Shown here piece by piece: positions 1 to 17,319 of a stretch of DNA of 17,319 nt; positions within the stretch are counted from its first letter, which is position 1, and each line of letters opens with the position of its first letter. The translations under genes and the position numbers were made by a program. The DNA is from a virus. Taxonomy: Duplodnaviria; Heunggongvirae; Uroviricota; Caudoviricetes. The notes beneath the pieces are model-generated. The model saw only the letters and a program-made list of their open reading frames with translations. It searched no databases and had not been told where the DNA came from. The DNA lies in IMG/VR virus record IMGVR_UViG_2547132281_000005; one strand, given 5' to 3'.

Positions 1-558
1 ATGAATACAGCTATAACTTTTTCTAACGAGTCACCAAAAGTCTTTTTCAAAGATGGTCGCCTGGTTACCACCTCTCAAGCTGTTGCCGACTACTTCGATA
101 AACAACATAAACACGTTTTAGCTAAGATTGACACACTCGACTGCTCTCCCGAATTTACATCAGCCAACTTTTCGGCCGATGTTCAGACTGTCGAAATTGG
201 CAACGGCGCAGAACGTGAATCACGATGCTACCTGATCACAAAAGACGGCTTCATGTTCCTCGTAATGGGATTTACTGGCAAAAAAGCAGCCAGACTAAAA
301 GAAGCTTACATTGAAAAATTTAACGCAATGGAAGAAGAACTCCACAAACGTCCTCCTGCAGCACAAAACTCCCCCGCCCCAAATAATGGATGCGCATTAC
401 TGATCCACTTCGATAAACACGGTCAGGTCGAGTTCACAGAAAAAGTCCCCGCCGATGCGATGGTATGCACGCTGGAACGGTTTAAATTTTATCTGGAGCA
501 ACATGGGTGGATCGTTGCCCGTAAAGAACAATTGGTGGAAAGGTTGATGCGGTTTTAA
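1..558 (+). CDS. Rha family phage regulatory protein (antirepressor-like)
   Basis: 185-aa ORF with stop TAA at 556-558; N-terminus (VFFKDGRLVTTSQAVADYFDKQHKHVLAKID) matches the Rha-domain pattern as I recall it. The start coincides with the window edge, so upstream context is unseen. Confidence 0.75.
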   Translation: MNTAITFSNESPKVFFKDGRLVTTSQAVADYFDKQHKHVLAKIDTLDCSPEFTSANFSADVQTVEIGNGAERESRCYLITKDGFMFLVMGFTGKKAARLKEAYIEKFNAMEEELHKRPPAAQNSPAPNNGCALLIHFDKHGQVEFTEKVPADAMVCTLERFKFYLEQHGWIVARKEQLVERLMRF

Positions 559-565
559 TGAATGC

Positions 566-598
566 AAAACCCCGGATGATCACCGGGGTTAATTTTAT
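566..598 (+). terminator. Rho-independent terminator after the Rha gene
   Basis: GC stem CCCCGG (570-575) / CCGGGG (583-588) with 7-nt loop, followed by TTAATTTTAT. Confidence 0.6.
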
Positions 599-684
599 CG
601 AGCGTGATTGCCGCTAATCGCCATCGCTCTGATTGAGCGTAAATCATTCAGGTTATTCAGTTCTTCCTTCTGCTCTCGCTGACG

Positions 685-864
685 TCAATAAATCCCATCA
701 TTGCGATCAACCTCATCCTTAACCATTGATGCGAGCAGTTCTTCCAGTTTCTGCGCTGACAGCTTTACCTGGTGATCTTCAGCATCTTCCCGGGCTATTG
801 TGGTTCGCGCAGTGGCTGATTTTGCTGACATCACCACAGGGGGCAGACGGACCATTGAACCATG
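685..864 (-). CDS. Hypothetical small protein (about 56 aa from ATG at 864)
   Basis: Track ORF 685-966 starts at a TTG inside the repeat hairpin. The internal ATG at 864 (MVRLPPVVMSAKS...) has a GGAGG 10 nt upstream, and another ATG lies at 840. No recognisable family. Confidence 0.2.
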   Translation of the reverse strand, partial: HGSMVRLPPVVMSAKSATARTTIAREDAEDHQVKLSAQKLEELLASMVKDEVDRNDGIY

Positions 865-918
865 GCCTCCGGAACAAATAAGGGCAAAAATAACAACCAC
901 TATCGAAAGCTCACAAAC

Positions 919-1135
919 TAACCGCAGCACGTTCCTGCATACGACGTGTCTGCGGCATAATCCCAATGATTACTCCCTGACAGGATTTGCAGGCCACTCA
1001 ATATCAGGTGCAGTTGATGTATCAACACGATTCAACAATACCCGATATTTATTCCATGCCTCCAGCAACGATCTTTCTTCCTCCGTTGCGATTTCCAGAT
1101 CTACAGCATCCTGCAGTGGCGCAATATACTCACTG
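919..1135. repeat. Direct repeat copy A (tfa 3' end plus downstream hairpin)
   Basis: About 217 bp, roughly 85-90% identical by eye to 1969-2185 (constant offset 1050 bp), same orientation. Contains hairpin 922-955 about 15 nt after the tfa-like stop. Confidence 0.7.
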
Positions 1136-1239
1136 AATTCCTGGATGTAGAACTGTGTGGTGACGGTCTTCCAGCCATTCGGCTCCTGCTGTATCGAAGC
1201 ATACCAGGCTATTTCAATATCGCTATGCTGCGGCAGCAT
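970..1239 (-). CDS. Short chimeric tail fibre assembly (Tfa)-like protein, 89 aa
   Basis: C-terminal 52 aa ([52 protein letters not shown]) differ at only 5 positions from the Tfa C-terminus at 2019-2603. N-terminal 36 aa are unrelated. ATG at 1239 is preceded by AAGGGG with a 4-nt spacer. Confidence 0.5.
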
Positions 1240-1295
1240 TTAACCCCTTGTAATTCATCGCCATAATTGATTTAATTCACAAATAAAACTATAAC

Positions 1296-1964
1296 ATGGT
1301 GAAATCAATGAAAAAAAACACAGATGATGGGGCTAAAATTTACACACCACTTACCCTAAAGCTTTATGACTGGTGGGTTTTGGGAGTATCAAATCGGCTT
1401 GCATGGGGATGTCCTACAAAGGAACACCTTCTTCCACACTTTCTGGAACATGTAGGTAACAACCATCTGGATATTGGTGTTGGAACTGGGTTTTACCTTA
1501 CTCACGTACCTGAGAGTAGTCTGATATCTTTAATGGATTTGAACGAAGCTAGCCTGAACGCGGCATCTACAAGGGCTGGGGAATCAAAAATTAAACATAA
1601 AATTAGCCATGATGTTTTTGAACCTTATCCCGCGGCGTTACATGGTCAATTTGATTCCATTTCCATGTTTTACCTTCTTCACTGCCTGCCTGGAAATATA
1701 TCTACAAAAAGCTGTGTAATACGCAATGCGGCGCAGGCCTTAACTGACGATGGAACTCTATACGGAGCCACAATTCTTGGCGATGGAGTTGTGCACAATA
1801 GCTTCGGTCAAAAACTGATGCGCATTTACAATCAGAAAGGCATCTTTTCAAACACAAAAGATTCCGAAGAAGGCTTAACACATATACTCTCAGAGCATTT
1901 CGAGAATGTTAAAACCAAGGTTCAAGGTACTGTAGTAATGTTTTCCGCTTCAGGGAAAAAATAG
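1296..1964 (+). CDS. Class I SAM-dependent methyltransferase (about 220 aa)
   Basis: Motif I LDIGVGTGFYL, acidic residue after beta-2 (MDLN), and later FDSISMFYLLHCLP and LTDDGTLYGATI blocks typical of the Rossmann-fold methyltransferase layout. Alternative start ATG at 1308 has GGTGA 5 nt upstream. Stop TAG at 1962-1964. Confidence 0.7.
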   Translation: MVKSMKKNTDDGAKIYTPLTLKLYDWWVLGVSNRLAWGCPTKEHLLPHFLEHVGNNHLDIGVGTGFYLTHVPESSLISLMDLNEASLNAASTRAGESKIKHKISHDVFEPYPAALHGQFDSISMFYLLHCLPGNISTKSCVIRNAAQALTDDGTLYGATILGDGVVHNSFGQKLMRIYNQKGIFSNTKDSEEGLTHILSEHFENVKTKVQGTVVMFSASGKK

Positions 1965-1968
1965 CATC

Positions 1969-2185
1969 CAACCGCAGCACGTTCTTGCTTAAGACGAGCT
2001 GCGGCATAATCCCAATGATTACTCCCTGACAGGGTTCGTAGGCCACTCAATATCAGGTGCAGTTGATGTATCAACACGGTTCAGCAACACCCGATACTTT
2101 TTCCAGGCTTCCAGCAATGAGGTTTCTTCCTCCGTTGCAATTTCCAGATCTGCAGCATCCTGAAGCGGCGCAATATGCTCACTGG
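1969..2185. repeat. Direct repeat copy B (tfa 3' end plus downstream hairpin)
   Basis: Partner of 919-1135; contains hairpin 1972-2004 immediately after the convergent stops of the methyltransferase and tfa. Confidence 0.7.
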
Positions 2186-2603
2186 CTACCTGCATCAGGT
2201 TGTTTTTTGTTTCTTCCGCCTCCCGGATCCGGAACAGTTTTTCTGCTTCCGTATCCTTCACCCAGGCTGTGCCGTTCCACTTCTGAAACTCCCCTTCCGG
2301 CGATAACCAGGTAACATTTTCCGGTAACGGACCGAGTTCAGAAATAAATAACTCGTCCCCTGACGCTACGTCATAAACCGTTTTACCCCGATGGTCTTCA
2401 ACGAGATGCCACGATGCCTCATCACTGTTGAAAACAGCCACAAAGCCAGCAGGAATATCTGGTGGTGCAATATCGGTACTGTTTGCTGGCAGACCTGTAT
2501 GAGGCGGAATATATGCGTCACCTTCACCAATAAATTCATTAGTTCCGGCCAGCAGATTATAAATTTTTATGGTCCGTGCTTGTTCACTCATTCTGAATGC
2601 CAT
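2019..2603 (-). CDS. tfa: Tail fibre assembly protein Tfa (194 aa)
   Basis: Same length as lambda Tfa (194 aa) and conserved Tfa C-terminal block. Its ATG (2603-2601) overlaps the stop of the upstream fibre ORF in a TAATG arrangement, as in the lambda stf-tfa pair. Confidence 0.85.
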
Positions 2604-3550
2604 TATGCAAGCCTCACAATATAGTTAAATGCGATGTTTTTGACGGTGTTTTCCGCGTTACCCGCAGCGTTAACGGTGATGGTGTGTCCATGTGAACCAA
2701 TCGCAACGGAGTGCGTATGCGCACCAATACCTACAGTATGTGCATGTGCGCCAGAACTTGCTGCAGTACCAGACAGCGAGTGGGTATGAGCACCTGCTGA
2801 CTGTGTCTGAATACGTTGATAATACGATCTATAGGAAGAAGTCTCCGGGCTTACTTGATACTGTGAATTCTGGACATAAGTGAACCCACCGCCATCATAA
2901 AATGCTAACGCAGAACCGCCGCCTCCTGGCCAACGAATACCATTACCATGAGTATGAACACCGGCAGACCCCGTAGAGCCACTCAGACTGTGCGTATGCG
3001 CCCCGGTGTTATTCGTGGATTTAGTGCCGTAATCAAACGACGATGTGGTTTTCGTCCCCAAATCCGTACTGGATGCGCTGGCGCTGTGGGTGTGCGATTT
3101 AATGCCGTCCTGTTCCTGAGACAATACGGCCCGGCCACTGGCGGGTTTGCCCTTGATTGTCCAGCCGCGCATATCTGGAATAACACCTGAAGGATAGGCA
3201 ATAGCCAGTTTCGGATATGCTGCCTTATCAAACGTCTGCCCCTGCATGATTGCATAACCTGCAGGTGGTGTATCTGATGGCCACGGCAGCGGAACACCTG
3301 GCGGAAACGCTTCAATATTTGCCGAGCCGTCAAATTTTACGCCGTTAATTGTCCTTGCAGTTTGCAATTTGGTTGCTGTGCTTGCATTAGTCGAGGCTAA
3401 GGGCTTTTTTAACCTCGCATCCGCGCCTGCGGTAACACTGAATGAGCCATTCGGCCTGTTCTTCAGTGCATGGGGGGTGCTGGTACCAGTCTGACTTAAA
3501 TGCATGAGAATACCGCTCGTGCGTGTGGGCAAGAACGGTCGAATTATCAT
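2603..3550 (-). CDS. stf: Side tail fibre protein, C-terminal fragment (lambda orf-314-like), N-terminally truncated
   Basis: 315-aa ORF rich in G/S/T/A with repeated GAHTHS / HxH motifs and a [13 protein letters not shown] block typical of Stf C-terminal regions. The frame hits a stop at 3602-3604 just upstream and the ATG at 3550 has no RBS, so the N-terminal shaft portion is missing. Confidence 0.6.
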
Positions 3551-3578
3551 GATTGTAATATTTTGCGTTGCGTGCCAT
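3387..3578 (-). CDS. Hypothetical 63-aa protein overlapping the stf fragment in another frame
   Basis: ATG at 3578 preceded by GGAGA with a 6-nt spacer; sequence is not fibre-like ([23 protein letters not shown]...). Could instead be a chance ORF. Confidence 0.35.
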
Positions 3579-3644
3579 CGGTTTTCTCCGGTGGCACGGT
3601 GTTACTCAGCGGGAGTTCAGCCCCGCGCAAGATTGTAGATGAGT

Positions 3645-3896
3645 TTATTCTTCTGAAAAAGCAGAAAAGCCAGCTTTTATTCCGATCTCTTTCAATGCCT
3701 GTAATGAAGTGACAAACTCACCGTCGCGCAAGATAAATCCGTCCGTCACTCGGGCATCCACAAAATTAATTAACGCAGCCCCATTTTTTTGCAAACACAC
3801 AATGCGGTAATGACTAACAATATTTCCATTTTCAACGCACACAGCATAGAGGCCATCTTCACAAAAAATTTTACGCAGTTCTTCGATGTTCATCAT
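3645..3896 (-). CDS. Hypothetical 83-aa protein
   Basis: Tandem ATG ATG at 3896-3891 preceded by GGAAGGA with a 5-nt spacer. No recognisable family. Confidence 0.5.
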   Translation of the reverse strand: MMNIEELRKIFCEDGLYAVCVENGNIVSHYRIVCLQKNGAALINFVDARVTDGFILRDGEFVTSLQALKEIGIKAGFSAFSEE

Positions 3897-4011
3897 CAGA
3901 ATCCTTCCGGATAATTAGCTCTCCCCTTTAAGGGACCATCCCTCTTATCCCTGCGCGCTACTTAAGTATTTTTGATTCTATTCCGGCACCGTCCAGAACT
4001 TCAAACGCGTT

Positions 4012-4112: not shown

Positions 4113-4268
4113 TTACTCCTCAGGTTCGTAAGCTGTGAAGACAGCGACCTCCGTCTGGCCGGTTCGGATTCGTACCTCGCAGAGGTCTTTCCTCGTTACC
4201 AGTGCCGTCACTATGACGGTTAAACAGATGACGATCAGGGCGATTAGCATCGCCTTTTGCTGCTTCAT
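4113..4268 (-). CDS. hok: Hok/Gef family type I toxin (51 aa)
   Basis: MKQQKAMLIALIVICLTVIVTALVTRKDLCEVRIRTGQTEVAVFTAYEPEE closely matches the Hok/Gef family as I recall it. ATG at 4268 preceded by GGAGA; stop TAA at 4113-4115. Confidence 0.85.
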   Translation of the reverse strand: MKQQKAMLIALIVICLTVIVTALVTRKDLCEVRIRTGQTEVAVFTAYEPEE

Positions 4269-4325
4269 AGCCTGCTTCTCCTTGCCTTTCGGCACGTAAG
4301 AGGCTAACCTACGTGTGTAGAGCAT
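4113..4325 (-). CDS. mok: Mok (modulator of killing) reading frame, in-frame N-terminal extension of hok
   Basis: 70-aa ORF sharing the stop and frame with hok, as in chromosomal mokC/hokC. Confidence 0.55.
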   Translation of the reverse strand: MLYTRRLASYVPKGKEKQAMKQQKAMLIALIVICLTVIVTALVTRKDLCEVRIRTGQTEVAVFTAYEPEE

Positions 4326-4370
4326 AGGTATGGCCTCAGATTAATGTTAAGCGTCTTGCCGGACGCGTAA
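4295..4370 (+). ncRNA. sok: Putative Sok-like antisense RNA (position inferred, boundaries approximate)
   Basis: Inferred from hok/sok organisation: the antisense RNA should overlap the mok initiation region. A plus-strand hairpin GCGTC-ttgccg-GACGC lies at 4351-4366 but lacks a clean U-run, so the end is uncertain. Confidence 0.25.
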
Positions 4371-4443
4371 TGTTAACTGGGGCTTTTCTCTATCTGCCTT
4401 TGGTGTTGATGCCCGAGGCAGATAGCCTCAAGCACCCGCAGCA

Positions 4444-5326: not shown

Positions 5327-6521
<1,195 letters not shown>

Positions 6522-6911: not shown

Positions 6912-7571
6912 TTGATTTTGAATTACAAAATAAATGGAATAAACATACGTTCAGAAAATGCAGCGAAACCGCACACTATGCCATCTAACTATCTCTGTAA
7001 ACAGATTGAAAGCACTAATAAAAATGGCAATGCCCTTGATTTTGGATGTGGAAAACTTAGATATTCAGAACAATTAGTAAATAAATTTGAAACTGTGACA
7101 TTTTTAGATTCCAGAAGACAACTAGAAAGAGTGCAAATTATCAGAGGTGTACAAACCACGATTCCAGATTACGTGATAAATAACTATAAGAATGCTAATA
7201 TTGTTTCTTATGAAAATATAGATAAAATAACAAATCATTATGATTTCATACTTTGCGCAAACGTGCTTTCCGCAATTCCATGTGAATCCACAATTCACAA
7301 AGTCCTCAGTGCGATTAGAGAATTATTAAAGAGTGATGGTGAAGCACTGATTGTCAATCAATACAAAAGTTCTTATTTCAAGAGGTACGAGAGCGGTATT
7401 AAACATTTGCATGGGTATATATACCAAAACTCTCGTAATGCTTTCTACTATGGTTTATTAGATGTGGATACTGTAAGTAAAATATGCTCAGATAATAATT
7501 TAGAAATAATAAAATCATGGAGCAAAGCAGGTAGTTCATATGTGGTTGTTGGTAAACATATACATATTTAG
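6912..7571 (+). CDS. TehB-like class I SAM-dependent methyltransferase (about 217-219 aa)
   Basis: Motif I ALDFGCGKL, acidic LDSR, YDFILCANVLSAIP and LKSDGEALIV blocks resemble TehB-type methyltransferases. Likely start is TTG 6918 (GAGG 6908-6911, 6-nt spacer) or TTG 6912; begins 7 nt after the membrane-protein stop. Confidence 0.7.
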   Translation: MILNYKINGINIRSENAAKPHTMPSNYLCKQIESTNKNGNALDFGCGKLRYSEQLVNKFETVTFLDSRRQLERVQIIRGVQTTIPDYVINNYKNANIVSYENIDKITNHYDFILCANVLSAIPCESTIHKVLSAIRELLKSDGEALIVNQYKSSYFKRYESGIKHLHGYIYQNSRNAFYYGLLDVDTVSKICSDNNLEIIKSWSKAGSSYVVVGKHIHI

Positions 7572-7885: not shown

Positions 7886-8785
7886 TTATAAATCAACAAC
7901 ATTTAGTGTTATATCAATATTATTTAGCCTTGCAATCTCTGATGAATCACTTGCTATTTTAGCTTTTAATTTATCAATATTAATCATATCTTCATGGCTT
8001 ATATAAACCATATCACCTTGGTTAACTTTAGATTTGTTCACTATGGCTTGAATAACAGACAAATCATCCATTACACCTCTCATAAATTTCACCATGCTTT
8101 GATCTTTGAAGTCAGATATCGATTTTGAGCGTTGCTTACGTTGAATTGTTCCTTTTGTAATTACTTCATTAATTTCTTTTAAACCAGTGAGCATATCAGA
8201 CAGACTGCCTTCGCAACTCATCCGATGTTTTATTGCATTGCGATTAATAATATTGAGTATAATTTCGAGTGAATCTTTATCACTCCATGGATGTAATGAT
8301 GTATAATCATGATGGCGTCGAATGGCGTCAATCATATCCTGGACCATATCTTCATCTGCTTTATCGCAAAGTTCATTCACGAAATAGCTGGGGTCGATTA
8401 TTTTACAATAACTTGGAGTTAGGTATCTTGAGGCTTTACAAAAACCAAAAATATATAAAGTAGAGTATTTATCTTTCAGACTCTCTCCTATTTCATTTGT
8501 TTCCTCAAAAGATTCGATAGTTTTTTTAATTTTTGCTGGACTTGCATTCGTAGTAACTTGAACTGCTATCATGTTTTTATTATCAGCTAAATCAATGGCG
8601 GGAAAATTAACTTTAATCTGATTCATGTTTACCAGTTCACCCATTTTCAGCGCGCGAAACATAAAGATGGTCAATGACTCAATTATTCTTTCCATGTCAT
8701 GAAAGCCTGCCTGTTTGCGTTGCGCGATATAAAGCTGGAGTAGTGCAATATCACTCTGTAAGTTTCTAATAAGTGGATCAATCAT
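7886..8785 (-). CDS. Hypothetical 299-aa protein, AT-rich orphan (candidate defence/abortive-infection gene)
   Basis: ATG at 8785 with AGGA upstream; long uninterrupted ORF, convergent with the methyltransferase. No recognisable catalytic motif (no HExxH, no Walker A, no TM segments). Confidence 0.7.
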   Translation of the reverse strand: MIDPLIRNLQSDIALLQLYIAQRKQAGFHDMERIIESLTIFMFRALKMGELVNMNQIKVNFPAIDLADNKNMIAVQVTTNASPAKIKKTIESFEETNEIGESLKDKYSTLYIFGFCKASRYLTPSYCKIIDPSYFVNELCDKADEDMVQDMIDAIRRHHDYTSLHPWSDKDSLEIILNIINRNAIKHRMSCEGSLSDMLTGLKEINEVITKGTIQRKQRSKSISDFKDQSMVKFMRGVMDDLSVIQAIVNKSKVNQGDMVYISHEDMINIDKLKAKIASDSSEIARLNNIDITLNVVDL

Positions 8786-12393: not shown

Positions 12394-12791
12394 CTAACCA
12401 ACGAAGCTAAGGTTGGTAATTAAGGAGTTCTCCACGGATGAGGTGGAGTGCGTGCGCCGGACACGGGTGAGCATCCGGCACAGACAGTTTACTGAAAGGA
12501 TATTTCCCTGAAAGGTCAGACCATAACGCGAAAGCGCACGGCGAGGTAGCTGGTTCATAGATAGCCTGTCGTTAAATTTTCGTCGACCGTGCGCTTCCGG
12601 TTGTGGCAATCCGCGAAATGGCGCGGCGGTGAGTATGGCGGGGTTATTCCTTCCCCGTTGAGGACACCGGGTTGTCAGGTTGACCATACGCTTAAGTGAC
12701 AACCCCGCTGCAACGCCCTCTGTTATCAATTTTCTGGTGACGTTTGGCGGTATCAGTTTTACTCCGTGACTGCTCTGCCGCCCTTTTTAAA
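12394..12791 (+). ncRNA. GC-rich structured non-coding region (candidate ncRNA or structured leader), strand assumed from the flanking operon
   Basis: No plausible ORF on either strand. Consecutive perfect stems: ACCAAC/GTTGGT (12397-12417), CTCCAC/GTGGAG (12430-12448), GCCGGA/TCCGGC (12456-12479), CGC-GAAA-GCG (12527-12536), GCGCACGG/CCGTGCGC (12534-12594), CCGCG/CGCGG (12611-12626), CGGGG/CCCCG (12639-12657), GGGTTGTCA/TGACAACCC (12669-12705), and GGCGG...CCGCC followed by CTTTTT (12746-12788). Confidence 0.3.
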
Positions 12792-15962: not shown

Positions 15963-16211
15963 ATGGCAAGACTTATTCTGCTCACTGAGTGGGCAAAAGA
16001 GGAATTCAGTGAACCGGTCCCAACTCCGAGTACGTTAAGTAAATACGCTAAAGCCGGAATGATATTTCCTCTCCCCAAAAAAGTTGGAAGACGCTGGCGA
16101 GTGGATCCGCAAGCTCGCTTTGTCGGAATGGTAAACAAGCCGGAGGTGATCGCCACAGATCACCCTGCTTTGAAGAGGATACTGGAAGATGGCGCGCCCG
16201 CGAAAATATAA
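15963..16211 (+). CDS. xis: Excisionase (Xis)-like protein, 82 aa
   Basis: Small basic protein immediately upstream of and overlapping the integrase start; KYAKAGMIFPLPKKVGRRWRV resembles excisionase-type DNA-binding motifs. Confidence 0.7.
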   Translation: MARLILLTEWAKEEFSEPVPTPSTLSKYAKAGMIFPLPKKVGRRWRVDPQARFVGMVNKPEVIATDHPALKRILEDGAPAKI

Positions 16212-17319
16212 AACCAATGTTCCGGGATTATCTCCTTATTTTGACAAAAGAAATAACAAAGTTTACTGGCGTTACAGGCATCCCATAACAGGCAAAAATC
16301 ACGGTCTCGGCAGTATTGACCAGAAACTGGCAGAAACTATTGCAGCAGAAGCGAACAGCCGTCTTGCCCGGCAGCAAATGGAACAAATGCTCAGTCTGCA
16401 GGAGAAAATTATTAGTGATACCGGCGGTTCATCAACCGTTACCATTTTTCTGAATAATTACAGAAAAATTCAACAGGAAAGATATGAAAACGGCGAGATC
16501 AAACTCAACACGCTGAAACAGAAAGCGGCCCCTCTCAGGGTATTTGATGAACGTTTTGGCACCAGACCGTTAGATGCCATAACCGTAAAAGATGTGGTAT
16601 CAGTACTGGAAGAGTACAAGGCCAGAGGACATAACAGAATGGGACAAATTTTCAGGAAGGTACTGATCGATGTTTTCCGGGAAGCTCAGCAAACGGGCGA
16701 TGTCCCGCCAGGCTTTAACCCTGCAGAATCGGCAAAAAAACCGCAGGTGCGGATATCAAGACAGCGACTGACTTTTGATGAGTGGATGATGATTTATAAC
16801 GCAGCGGAAAAGGATGGTTACTTTTTACAGCGCGGTATGCTGCTGGCACTGATGACAGGCCAGCGCCTTTCAGATATTTGCAAAATGCAATTTTCGGATA
16901 TCCGGGATGGTTATCTTCATGTCGAACAGCAAAAAACAGGAACCCGGATTGCCATCCCTCTGGCTCTGCGTTGCGATAAATTAAATCTCACCCTGGATGA
17001 TGTAGTGTCATCCTGCCGCGATTGTGTTCTTAGTCCGTGGCTATTGCACCACCATCACGCGAAAGGGACAGCTAAGCGCGGCGGGATGGTTAAGCCAGCA
17101 ACATTAACCGTTGCATTTAAAAAAGCCCGGGATTCTGTGGATTACAACTGGCGTGCTAATGGCACCCCACCCTCTTTCCATGAGCAGAGATCTTTATCAG
17201 AGCGATTGTTCAGAGAGCTGGGGGTTGATACCAAAATTTTGCTAGGCCATTCGAATCAAAAAATGACCGATATTTACAACGATGTACGCGGTAAGGAGTG
17301 GAAAAAACTGGTCATTTGA
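16189..17319 (+). CDS. int: Lambda-family tyrosine integrase (376 aa)
   Basis: N-terminal arm-binding motif LSPYFDKRNNKVYWRYRHPITGKNHGLG parallels lambda Int (LPPNLYIRNNGYYCYRDPRTGKEFGLG); C-terminus LLGHSNQKMTDIYNDV carries the catalytic Tyr region. Stop TGA is the last codon of the window. Confidence 0.9.
   Translation: MARPRKYKTNVPGLSPYFDKRNNKVYWRYRHPITGKNHGLGSIDQKLAETIAAEANSRLARQQMEQMLSLQEKIISDTGGSSTVTIFLNNYRKIQQERYENGEIKLNTLKQKAAPLRVFDERFGTRPLDAITVKDVVSVLEEYKARGHNRMGQIFRKVLIDVFREAQQTGDVPPGFNPAESAKKPQVRISRQRLTFDEWMMIYNAAEKDGYFLQRGMLLALMTGQRLSDICKMQFSDIRDGYLHVEQQKTGTRIAIPLALRCDKLNLTLDDVVSSCRDCVLSPWLLHHHHAKGTAKRGGMVKPATLTVAFKKARDSVDYNWRANGTPPSFHEQRSLSERLFRELGVDTKILLGHSNQKMTDIYNDVRGKEWKKLVI

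Follow-up and report, generated by a model that had tools for sequence, protein, structure and literature searches.

The window analysed here, a 17,319-nucleotide stretch of DNA, is a decayed E. coli prophage and very probably carries the tfa-ybcY-tfaX module of lambdoid prophages, the module known as tfaD-ybcY-tfaX in the DLP12 prophage of K-12. In this module a methyltransferase gene lies on the opposite strand between two direct repeats of the tfa 3' end (Table 1). We read the two repeats as deriving from two tfa alleles that differ by 12%, with mostly synonymous changes in the core; exchange between phages and not a local duplication would have brought their 3' ends together. Judging from the sequences compared below, the joining most likely took place when lambdoid phages underwent homologous exchange, using the conserved 3' end of tfa and the hairpin behind it.

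Table 1. Features of the module and its flanks, in window coordinates.
Feature	Positions	Strand	Basis or remark
DUF4376-domain pseudogene remnant	595-873	-	PGAP on identical 14EC017 sequence (L001 15036-15314): internal stop, N-terminus missing
Direct repeat copy A	920-1146	-	hairpin, 14-nt spacer, last 58 codons and stop of a tfa frame
Hairpin A	922-955	both senses	CCGCAGCACGTTCCTGCATACGACGTGTCTGCGG; then UUAGUUUGUG in the tfa sense; identical to a hairpin of the lambda b region
89-aa ORF, equivalent of K-12 TfaX (PHROG 2341)	970-1239	-	Caudo_TAP (PF02413), 6e-25
Predicted sigma-70 promoter TTGATT-17-TATAAC	1267-1295	+	read from the sequence; for the methyltransferase
YbcY-type class I SAM-dependent methyltransferase (PHROG 2132)	1296-1964	+	several class I methyltransferase Pfam families matched
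Direct repeat copy B	1970-2195	-	hairpin, spacer, last 58 codons and stop of full-length tfa
Hairpin B	1972-2004	both senses	8 nt past the stop of the methyltransferase and 14 nt past that of tfa; common to both convergent genes
Full-length tail fibre assembly gene tfa, 194 aa	2019-2603	-	PF02413, 1.9e-44
Rfam RF02111 'IS009' match	2062-2260	-	inside the tfa coding sequence; 225.2 bits, gathering score 117
stf (side tail fibre) 3' remnant	2603-3389	-	aligns with the intact stf (3027 nt) of strain 14EC017

The arrangement itself is already known and has long been annotated in K-12. Positions 993-2457 match DLP12 of MG1655 with 96.9% identity over 1465 bp, and the MG1655 annotation of tfaD, ybcY (as a pseudogene) and tfaX (b0561-b0563) has the same order and orientation as the window. 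The two modules also share the direct repeat of the tfa 3' end (157 bp and 85% in MG1655), the hairpin after ybcY and the promoter hexamers. They differ in that ybcY of DLP12 is a frameshifted pseudogene, its tfaX is cut to 61 aa and its flank is appY-ompT, whereas the window has an intact ybcY, an 89-aa short ORF and a flank consisting of the DUF4376 relic and rha beside ompW. The original prediction for this DNA had described the region without recognising it as the annotated K-12 module. Of 5426 complete E. coli genomes, 3843 contain the cassette core (1147-1969) at 95% identity or more, with up to four copies each; the full arrangement is found in 376 genomes. Phages 2G7b and ev243 carry the cassette behind non-lambda tail fibres, and in PhiR68_2 it lies beyond pin-ynaE, with pin between tfa and the cassette. 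Since the module is annotated in K-12 and present in roughly 70% of complete E. coli genomes, we consider the cassette real but ordinary, and as a discovery it carries little weight.

The two repeats are identical at 200 of 227 positions (88.1%) in a global alignment, with one 1-nt indel. A repeat search recovers 950-1146/1999-2195 at 89% together with 920-946/1970-1996, and BLAST aligns the copies with E = 3e-77; they have exact runs of 39 and 35 nt in common. The pair of same-orientation repeats of about 217 bp and 85-90% identity that had been proposed (919-1135 and 1969-2185) is therefore confirmed, extending about 10 bp further than supposed, as is the presence of a tfa 3' end and a hairpin in each copy: the tfa stops lie at 970-972 and 2019-2021, each preceded by 58 codons of the repeat, with the hairpins 14 nt beyond. 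Codon by codon the copies differ by 11 synonymous and 8 non-synonymous changes, and four of those eight fall within the first seven codons, at the repeat edge. Because the substitutions are mainly synonymous, both copies appear to have diverged as working genes. Copy A is itself a mosaic, as read from allele typing and from the left breakpoints of the cassette in other contexts (992/993/1015): it corresponds to the native tfa-downstream sequence as far as about 990-1029, and from about 1015-1030 onwards it is tfaX-type cassette.

To the right of the cassette, full-length tfa scores 151.5 bits against PF02413, above the gathering threshold and over profile positions 1-130, and the segment that spans it (1970-2740) is 92.5% identical to lambda. 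The stf homology stops at 3389, so the listed ORF at 2603-3550 crosses a deletion junction. To the left, the DUF4376 remnant is the relic of another tail-fibre-associated gene; this flank is common to occupied and empty variants and is found in all empty-site loci. As the prophage lacks any structural genes, tfa can have no role in phage assembly in the window.

The moron concept is that of Hendrix and Juhala, with lom and bor of lambda as lambdoid examples. The methyltransferase gene, whose likely true start is the ATG at 1308 (the curated K-12 start and the start of the PHROG profile), fits this definition on account of its own predicted sigma-70 promoter, its lower GC and its 3'-end hairpin. 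It is present or absent at the same position, and its base composition is unlike that of its neighbours (GC 0.411, against 0.47-0.51 for tfa, stf and the repeats). A stable hairpin stands 8 nt past its stop, though a T-run in the ybcY sense is absent here. Like lambdoid morons it is an extra gene among late genes that is missing from near-identical genomes, and the opposite-strand methyltransferase moron of the original prediction, bracketed by direct repeats of the tfa 3' end, is borne out. It differs from the classical examples in lying between the copies of a 227-bp direct repeat of the end of a neighbouring gene, which morons do not need, and in having no cargo-side U-tract after the hairpin in the present context. 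A list of RpoD-holoenzyme sites in K-12 gives the same promoter hexamers for ybcY, in its spacer with tfaX, and also notes H-NS (PMC3946193).

YbcY is a very widespread prophage methyltransferase, and its ORF is intact in each of the 116 sampled copies, a sample partly biased toward intact copies. As to the origin of the cargo, homologues with 61-64% identity reside in Enterobacter chromosomes, where they have no tfa flanks. Only generic class I domains of the small-molecule type match the protein, and among solved structures it comes closest to UbiG and juvenile-hormone acid methyltransferases (E about 1e-3). A defence-system search with PADLOC returned a weak mad2 match alone (E = 0.009, 12.9 bits), NCBIfam gave only matches far below cut-off, and the literature held nothing useful on ybcY function. 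A role of the cargo as a DNA methylase, of a restriction-modification system or orphan, or in defence finds no profile support in Pfam, solved structures, PADLOC or NCBIfam, and we set it aside.

The cassette is polymorphic. In twenty records or genomes the left flank is the one seen here but only one tfa is present, and sister prophages at the same ompW site, sharing both flanks, have one tfa and no methyltransferase. The single-tfa relatives for which a comparison had been suggested are thus found, and the outcome that would have spoken against the proposal, two paralogues fixed in all relatives with no insertion/deletion polymorphism, is contradicted by the empty sisters. NMBU-W13E19 agrees with the predicted product of a repeat-to-repeat deletion at 1738 of 1741 bases outside the 1049-bp segment, with no difference over window positions 1-1029, three over 2079-3389 and one over a further 2.6 kb. 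In all eight sequenced single-tfa variants the switch from A-like to B-like sequence falls in the same interval, 990-1030; seven of the eight are different tfa alleles, 95-97% identical, and one is at a different chromosomal site. Since this interval is also the left boundary of the cassette in unrelated contexts, most single-tfa variants look like unoccupied ancestors and not like independent excisions, while NMBU-W13E19 would fit either a deletion or an unoccupied founder.

These variants bear directly on the idea that recombination between copies A and B is a working excision device, one that repeatedly deletes or circularises the methyltransferase in an ongoing, reversible polymorphism. 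We regard this as possible but doubtful. The exact runs of 39 and 35 nt would suffice for RecA or Red, the region is deletion-prone (760-1187, and with it copy A, is missing from the IMG/VR variant L051), and NMBU-W13E19 not only comes close to the predicted product but has, at two of its three differences, copy-A alleles in B-like sequence, as patchy heteroduplex repair would leave them. The A-type alleles, however, also segregate among other native tfa alleles, so that this patch may be ordinary polymorphism and is weakened as proof of a deletion. The common switch point of all eight single-tfa variants is what unoccupied ancestors should have, and about 350 occupied against 20 empty genomes give no sign of frequent loss. 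The suggestion that the repeats would excise the methyltransferase accordingly stands in part: a near match to the predicted product exists, but most of the single-tfa variants look ancestral.

Homologous exchange, our preferred reading, accounts for both loading and loss. The conserved tfa 3' end and hairpin would serve as natural homology arms, at which RecA- or Red-type recombination between co-resident lambdoid phages or prophages could place the cassette behind any tail-fibre module that a phage happens to carry, and the same homology could delete it again. In the lysogen the methyltransferase would be transcribed from its own predicted promoter, with the hairpin that separates its transcript from the convergent one of tfa as a putative terminator or 3'-end structure. 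Cassette homology breaks on the left at 898, 992/993, 1015, 1032 or 1036 and on the right at 2004, 2116, 2139, 2164 or one of many points within tfa and stf, and such a multitude of different junctions is as expected for homologous exchange. There is a close precedent: lambda takes up markers placed in tfaQ or stfR of the defective prophages of K-12 through Red-beta or RecA, across tfa/stf sequences that are 88-96% identical (De Paepe et al., 2014; PMC3945230). There, as proposed here, DNA within tfa/stf homology moves into an infecting phage, and the repeat identity in the window is 88%; the difference is that the mobile DNA consisted of resistance markers inserted in Rac and Qin and not of the ybcY cassette. 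The cassette offers a clean natural case of lambdoid prophages loading and losing cargo via short and diverged homologous sequence where the tail-fibre operon ends, a process that has been shown by experiment with artificial markers.

Both repeats carry a hairpin of the pattern CCGCAG-N16-26-CTGCGG, which occurs twice in the window against 0.01 occurrences expected by chance. The hairpins are stable in either sense, with folding energies in the tfa sense of -22.0 kcal/mol for A and -24.3 kcal/mol for B (z = -2.6 and -3.6). Their tails in this sense, UUAGUUUGUG (A) and UUGGAUGCUAUUUUUU (B), hold only a patchy U-tract, and a consensus scan gives a terminator-like match only on the minus strand at 939-923, in a partial stem of copy A. 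In the ybcY sense no U-tract follows the hairpin in the window, where it is succeeded by CAUAAUCCC / CATAATCCC. A hairpin stands directly 3' of the ybcY stop in every context, and a T-run comes after it in this sense in three independent non-tfa contexts only. Other tfa alleles have ordinary terminators, a GC-hairpin with a T-run, at the equivalent position. We found nothing useful in the literature on a terminator between tfa and ea47 of lambda.

The original prediction had both hairpins folding despite differing arms, which holds, and called the changes compensatory, which does not. Five differences separate the two: one indel in a bulge, one change in the loop, two that jointly give B an additional inner U-A pair, and one that costs it an A-U pair. 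No compensating pair change is among them, and the substitution that breaks the A-U pair, leaving one mismatch, is rare (one in about 100 sampled copies). Across 19 variants of the family 89.7% of cells are paired and two pairs show a double-sided change; 41 of 500 shuffles reach two such pairs and 12 of 500 reach the observed pairing. Covariation across the family is marginal by this strict measure and we therefore drop the word compensatory; the conservation of the hairpin could simply reflect recent common descent.

The hairpin rather than the tfa homology might be what matters for exchange, the 33-34-nt CCGCAG...CTGCGG element acting as a portable joint that swaps opposite-strand cargo (ybcY, or ea47 in lambda) downstream of tfa. 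On that account such swaps would recurrently leave a duplicated hairpin as their scar, and a step specific for structure or sequence might take part in place of plain homology. Several junctions invite this reading. The hairpin, at 2004, is exactly where cassette homology stops in three independent right-hand contexts; one class of locus spans 898-2004, from just outside the start of hairpin A at 922 to the end of hairpin B; and contig L098 has tfa, one hairpin and the flank of the lambda b region contiguously. In lambda, too, the same hairpin family follows tfa, with the opposite-strand ea47 beyond it and then a second hairpin copy (L005 1418-1451 and 3007-3040), and the outer flank is as here (window 898-956 against lambda at about 24161-24219, 90% identical). 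The lambda b region differs from the window in its cargo, which is not a methyltransferase, and in that only the hairpin with about 25 nt of flank is repeated, with no fragment of tfa coding sequence. We nonetheless judge a dedicated joint improbable: 34 conserved nucleotides give Red-type recombination enough homology to make a special mechanism superfluous, many other breakpoints fall inside tfa and away from the hairpin, no recombinase is associated with it, and selection for intact genes would also place surviving junctions at gene ends. That ea47 is bracketed by the same hairpin nevertheless yields a small, testable idea on where moron junctions form.

The short ORF that overlaps the left repeat, on the promoter side of the methyltransferase, reads as a chimeric relic: its first 35 codons are the start of a small gene like HK225 gp28, and the remaining 54 are the 3' end of a different tfa allele. 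Its match to PF02413 (88.3 bits, above the gathering threshold) covers profile positions 75-130 only, as for a C-terminal fragment; this is residues 36-89, and 970-1146 is a pseudogene according to PGAP. Residues 1-35 (1135-1239), the 5' part that had been taken for novel, resemble in minus-strand translation the N-terminus of PHROG 3893 (1.6e-7) and of HK225 gp28. This part thus stems from the beginning of another small phage gene, and on that ground we call the ORF chimeric. Translated from the plus strand, the 5' part has no match in Pfam or PHROGs. In strain IAI39, PGAP labels that plus-strand translation a DinI-family fragment.

It might still be asked whether the 89-aa product is a functional truncated chaperone or accessory protein, with selection on the protein maintaining the second repeat. 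Most sampled copies (about 80%) keep the ORF whole, at 88-89 aa; it forms a family of its own (PHROG 2341) and is annotated as 'protein TfaX' in MG1655. We find such a function quite improbable, since PGAP treats the gene as a pseudogene with its N-terminus missing, nothing before Caudo_TAP profile position 75 is present, and about one fifth of the sampled copies are truncated or frameshifted, with at least four different 3' ends. The product is 61 aa in K-12 and PhiR68_2 and elsewhere 11, 28, 40, 66 or 68 aa, or 106 aa where a frameshift extends it, the C-terminal tails are of at least four unrelated kinds, and its strong conservation can be put down to the young age of the whole cassette.

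Tandem duplication of the tfa 3' end within one phage, followed by insertion of the methyltransferase, would explain why the copies are direct with near-identical ends, but we reject it as very improbable, because copies 12% apart sit around a cassette that is at least 95% identical in thousands of genomes, their mainly synonymous substitutions are those of functioning genes, allele blocks of copy A recur in tfaX copies behind unrelated tail-fibre modules, and copy A is joined to a fragment of a different gene. A Pin/Gin-type invertible segment is likewise rejected, in agreement with the original prediction: the repeats are direct, inverted repeats of more than 15 nt are absent from positions 1-4000, and the annotation of the matching 14EC017 regions has no invertase; these regions cover the window except for the IS5 segment at 5327-6521, outside that annotation. 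There is only a tyrosine integrase, at 16189-17319. Pin, Gin and Cin segments resemble the module in placing a second tfa-type gene beside the first and in diversifying tail-fibre ends; they differ in that their crossover sites must be inverted and a serine invertase must lie next to them, and in that the two tfa genes point towards each other.

Finally, the repeats match a small RNA family, IS009 (Rfam RF02111), copy B with adjoining tfa sequence over the full length of the model at 225 bits and copy A (1013-1216) at 112.5 bits, just under the gathering score of 117; the match is real, but that the repeats are copies of a small RNA gene is hardly credible, as it lies wholly within the reading frame of tfa, on the coding strand, and leaves out the hairpin, and the differences between A and B show a codon pattern. 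Because both matches are inside coding sequence, membership says little on function, and the family appears to model a tfa fragment. In such regions, IS009 matches and the 89-aa 'tfa-like' ORF alike should be read as tfa relics, not as new genes.

The structure at the left of the window is borne out: the methyltransferase moron is bracketed by two direct repeats of the tfa 3' end, copy A (920-1146) and copy B (1970-2195), which are identical at 200 of 227 aligned positions with one 1-nt indel (BLAST E = 3e-77). The original prediction described these repeats accurately overall, although its coordinates stop about 10 bp too early at the inner ends. Copies A and B are both on the minus strand; each consists of the last 58 codons plus the stop of a frame matching Caudo_TAP (Pfam). 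The CCGCAG/CTGCGG hairpin pattern found in each copy occurs twice in the window (0.01 expected), and both hairpins fold stably in both senses.

Features of the window, with coordinates and strand
Feature	Position	Strand	Remarks
Hairpin A	922-955		CCGCAG/CTGCGG outer arms; 14 nt past the short-ORF stop
tfa pseudogene without N-terminus	970-1146		PGAP, strain 14EC017
Short ORF, 89 aa	970-1239	-	Caudo_TAP profile positions 75-130 only
Promoter TTGATT-17-TATAAC	1267-1295		read in the sequence
Class I SAM-dependent methyltransferase, 222 aa	1296-1964	+	between the repeats
Hairpin B	1972-2004		CCGCAG/CTGCGG outer arms; 14 nt past the tfa stop
Full-length tfa, 194 aa	2019-2603	-	Caudo_TAP profile positions 1-130
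sok antitoxin RNA	4263-4437	-	Rfam, above threshold; adjoins hokD
338-aa ORF	5473-6489	-	inside the 5327-6521 insertion
DicF RNA	12732-12783	+	Rfam, above threshold; adjoins dicB/ydfA-C

The window is a lambdoid E. coli prophage integrated at ompW and adjoining the trp operon. Its positions 1-3389 are 100% identical to strain 14EC017, for which PGAP lists a Rha regulator, a DUF4376 pseudogene, a tfa pseudogene, the methyltransferase, tfa and a side tail fibre gene. The methyltransferase is named 'YbcY' in phage PhiR68_2, and this label led us to compare the locus with K-12. In the DLP12 cryptic prophage of MG1655, tfaD, ybcY and tfaX have the same order and orientation as in the window, the locus is 96.9% identical to window 993-2457, and it has a direct repeat of its own (157 bp). 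On these grounds the finding is the K-12 tfaD-ybcY-tfaX module, here with its cargo intact, whereas ybcY is a pseudogene in DLP12. The module is thus already known and annotated in K-12, and the novelty implied earlier does not hold. At ≥95% identity, the unique core (1147-1969) is found in 3843 of the 5426 complete E. coli genomes, in up to 4 copies per genome; the entire arrangement with the flanks of the window is found in 376.

Searching with an artificial repeat-to-repeat deletion product, we find genomes in which the ompW site and its flanks are the same, a single tfa is present and the methyltransferase is absent. The predicted presence/absence polymorphism is therefore real, with 20 single-tfa records (short junction query) against roughly 350 that are occupied by the methyltransferase cassette. 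We typed eight single-tfa variants at the 33 sites that differ between copies A and B. Each of the eight is A-like as far as 990 and B-like from 1030 onward; seven carry different tfa alleles (95-97% identical), and one lies at another chromosomal site, ompN-uspF. This common switch coincides with the left boundary of the cassette in unrelated contexts, and the single tfa of lambda shows mostly the same pattern, A-like as far as 990 and B-like from 1030 onward. Most single-tfa forms therefore resemble an unoccupied ancestral state. One strain, NMBU-W13E19, stands apart, with 0 differences from the window over 1-1029, 3 over 2079-3389 and 1 over a further 2.6 kb. It could be a very recent deletion between the repeats, in which case the copy-A alleles at two of the three differences would hint at heteroduplex repair; however, the same alleles segregate among other native tfa alleles, and a founder type that received the cassette has about the same chance of being correct.

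How would the cassette reach such a site? Its homology to the window stops on the left at 898, 992/993, 1015, 1032 or 1036 and on the right at 2004, 2116, 2139, 2164 or at many points in tfa/stf. Breakpoints scattered in this way within a conserved segment suggest that related phages exchange the cassette by homologous recombination where the tail-fibre operon ends. Such a mechanism is established in kind, with direct experimental precedent: lambda gains markers inside tfaQ/stfR of K-12 defective prophages through Red-beta or RecA, at 88-96% identity (PMC3945230). Phages 2G7b and ev243 have the cassette after non-lambda tail-fibre modules and retain both tfa fragments only as stubs; in PhiR68_2 it lies past pin and ynaE. 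The codon differences between copies A and B (11 synonymous and 8 non-synonymous, with 4 of the 8 among the first 7 codons, at the edge of the repeat) form the pattern of two alleles whose divergence took place while each was still a working gene.

Lambda offers a parallel. Window 898-956, which is hairpin A with 22 nt of outer flank, is 90% identical to lambda ~24161-24219, between ea47 and ea31, where the hairpin is identical to that of copy A; another hairpin variant follows the lambda tfa, and ea47, also on the opposite strand, is thus bracketed by two copies (1418-1451 and 3007-3040 of the lambda locus L005). On the IMG/VR contig L098, tfa leads through a single hairpin straight into the lambda b-region flank, like an empty site for ea47. 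Together with three contexts in which cassette homology stops exactly at the hairpin, this suggests that crossovers often take place at the 34-nt hairpin itself. Recombination through short homology is enough to explain these junctions; a dedicated mechanism there is possible but unsupported. A Pin/Gin-type invertible segment is rejected, as had been argued from the sequence: the repeats are direct, and the matching regions of 14EC017 have no annotated invertase.

Many tfa alleles on IMG/VR contigs have ordinary terminators (a GC-rich hairpin and a T-run) at the same position, and the CCGCAG hairpin would on this basis be the terminator-type element of this tfa lineage. It lies directly 3' of the ybcY stop in all contexts sampled, and in three independent flanks without a neighbouring tfa it is followed by a T-run in the ybcY sense, a combination that forms a canonical terminator. 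In the window, by comparison, the ybcY side has no U-tract and the tfa side a patchy one, and the two hairpins are putative terminators. Their differences had been called compensatory. Both hairpins do still fold, but compensation is not borne out by the five differences between them: a bulge in A that B lacks, one loop change and three further changes, of which two jointly make an extra inner pair in B and one breaks a pair in B. Nor does an alignment of 19 distinct hairpin variants bear it out. Standard pairs fill 89.7% of pair cells, a level reached by 12 of 500 shuffles, and double-sided change occurs in only two pairs, which 41 of 500 shuffles reach; covariation is therefore marginal. At 1999, hairpin B has a rare base that turns an A-U pair into a mismatch, as it does in 14EC017. 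This variant is seen once among ~100 sampled copies, the others keeping a perfect 11-bp outer stem, and it is probably the source of the single mismatch between 14EC017 and the next-best genomes.

For ybcY, genomic SELEX gives exactly the promoter hexamers of window 1267-1295, in the ybcY/tfaX spacer and as one of the constitutive RpoD-holoenzyme sites, with H-NS noted (PMC3946193). In the window the -10 hexamer runs right up to the annotated ATG (1296); ATG 1308, which corresponds to the curated start in K-12 and to the beginning of the PHROG 2132 profile, is likely the true one. Starting there would leave a very short leader, unless a weaker promoter-like site upstream (1240-1267) is used. 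Domain searches return generic class I matches only, distantly UbiG- and juvenile-hormone-acid-methyltransferase-like (E ~1e-3). The enzyme does not appear to be a DNA methylase, and we find no significant match to it among known defence components. Its GC content is 41%, against 47-51% in the surrounding phage genes, and homologues 61-64% identical occur without tfa flanks in Enterobacter chromosomes; the gene probably originated in such a chromosome, or that of another enterobacterium, and was captured from there. It is intact in 116 of 116 sampled copies, a biased sample selected partly through the protein.

Residues 1-35 of the short ORF show no resemblance to Tfa; they match the N-terminus of PHROG 3893 (E = 1.6e-7) and give a weak match to that of HK225 gp28, a small gene located immediately past tfa and dinI in HK225. 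The short ORF is therefore a fusion of two gene fragments. Most sampled copies encode 89 or 88 aa; minority forms have 61, 11, 28, 40, 66 or 68 aa or are extended by frameshift, and at least four different C-terminal tails occur. We read it as a probable relic. In IAI39, PGAP labels the plus strand of the same stretch (window 1141-1221; 2995-3075 of locus L213) an N-terminal DinI-family fragment. For the plus-strand translation of the window, neither Pfam nor PHROGs gives a match; that of the minus strand matches PHROG 3893, in conflict with the label. One IMG/VR contig (L051) keeps the methyltransferase and has lost window 760-1187, comprising part of the DUF4376 relic, hairpin A and all of copy A. 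The DUF4376 relic (595-873), to the left of hairpin A, is 72% identical to sequence on the opposite side of the cassette, ~2.1 kb to the right, in another class of loci (L068, L072 and L074). Remnants of tail-fibre-associated genes, from several generations, seem to have built up in this region.

Rfam RF02111 ('IS009') matches 2062-2260 with 225 bits and 1013-1216 with 112.5 bits, just under the threshold of 117. Each of the two is contained in the tfa reading frame, in the coding sense, and stops short of the hairpin; we treat the model as one of a tfa fragment and reject a small RNA. Compared with 14EC017, the window breaks off inside the side tail fibre gene at 3389/3390 and resumes in the rem/hokD region, ~37.9 kb away, with head, tail and lysis genes all missing. 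This junction occurs in none of the 5426 complete genomes, and IMG/VR contigs that start at the first base of the window continue with an intact stf, without it. The ORF at 2603-3550 thus crosses the junction, and its start is not that of a real gene. An insertion of 1195 bp compared with 14EC017 (5327-6521, with a 4-bp overlap at its ends), which by size and layout we take to be IS5, interrupts a hypothetical gene upstream of a second class I SAM-dependent methyltransferase. The latter and the adjoining gene for a SMEK-domain protein lie at 6918-7571 and 7886-8785; the sequence of this second methyltransferase shows no relation to that of the YbcY-type enzyme (BLASTP E = 2.9). The early region is of the Qin/dicB type.
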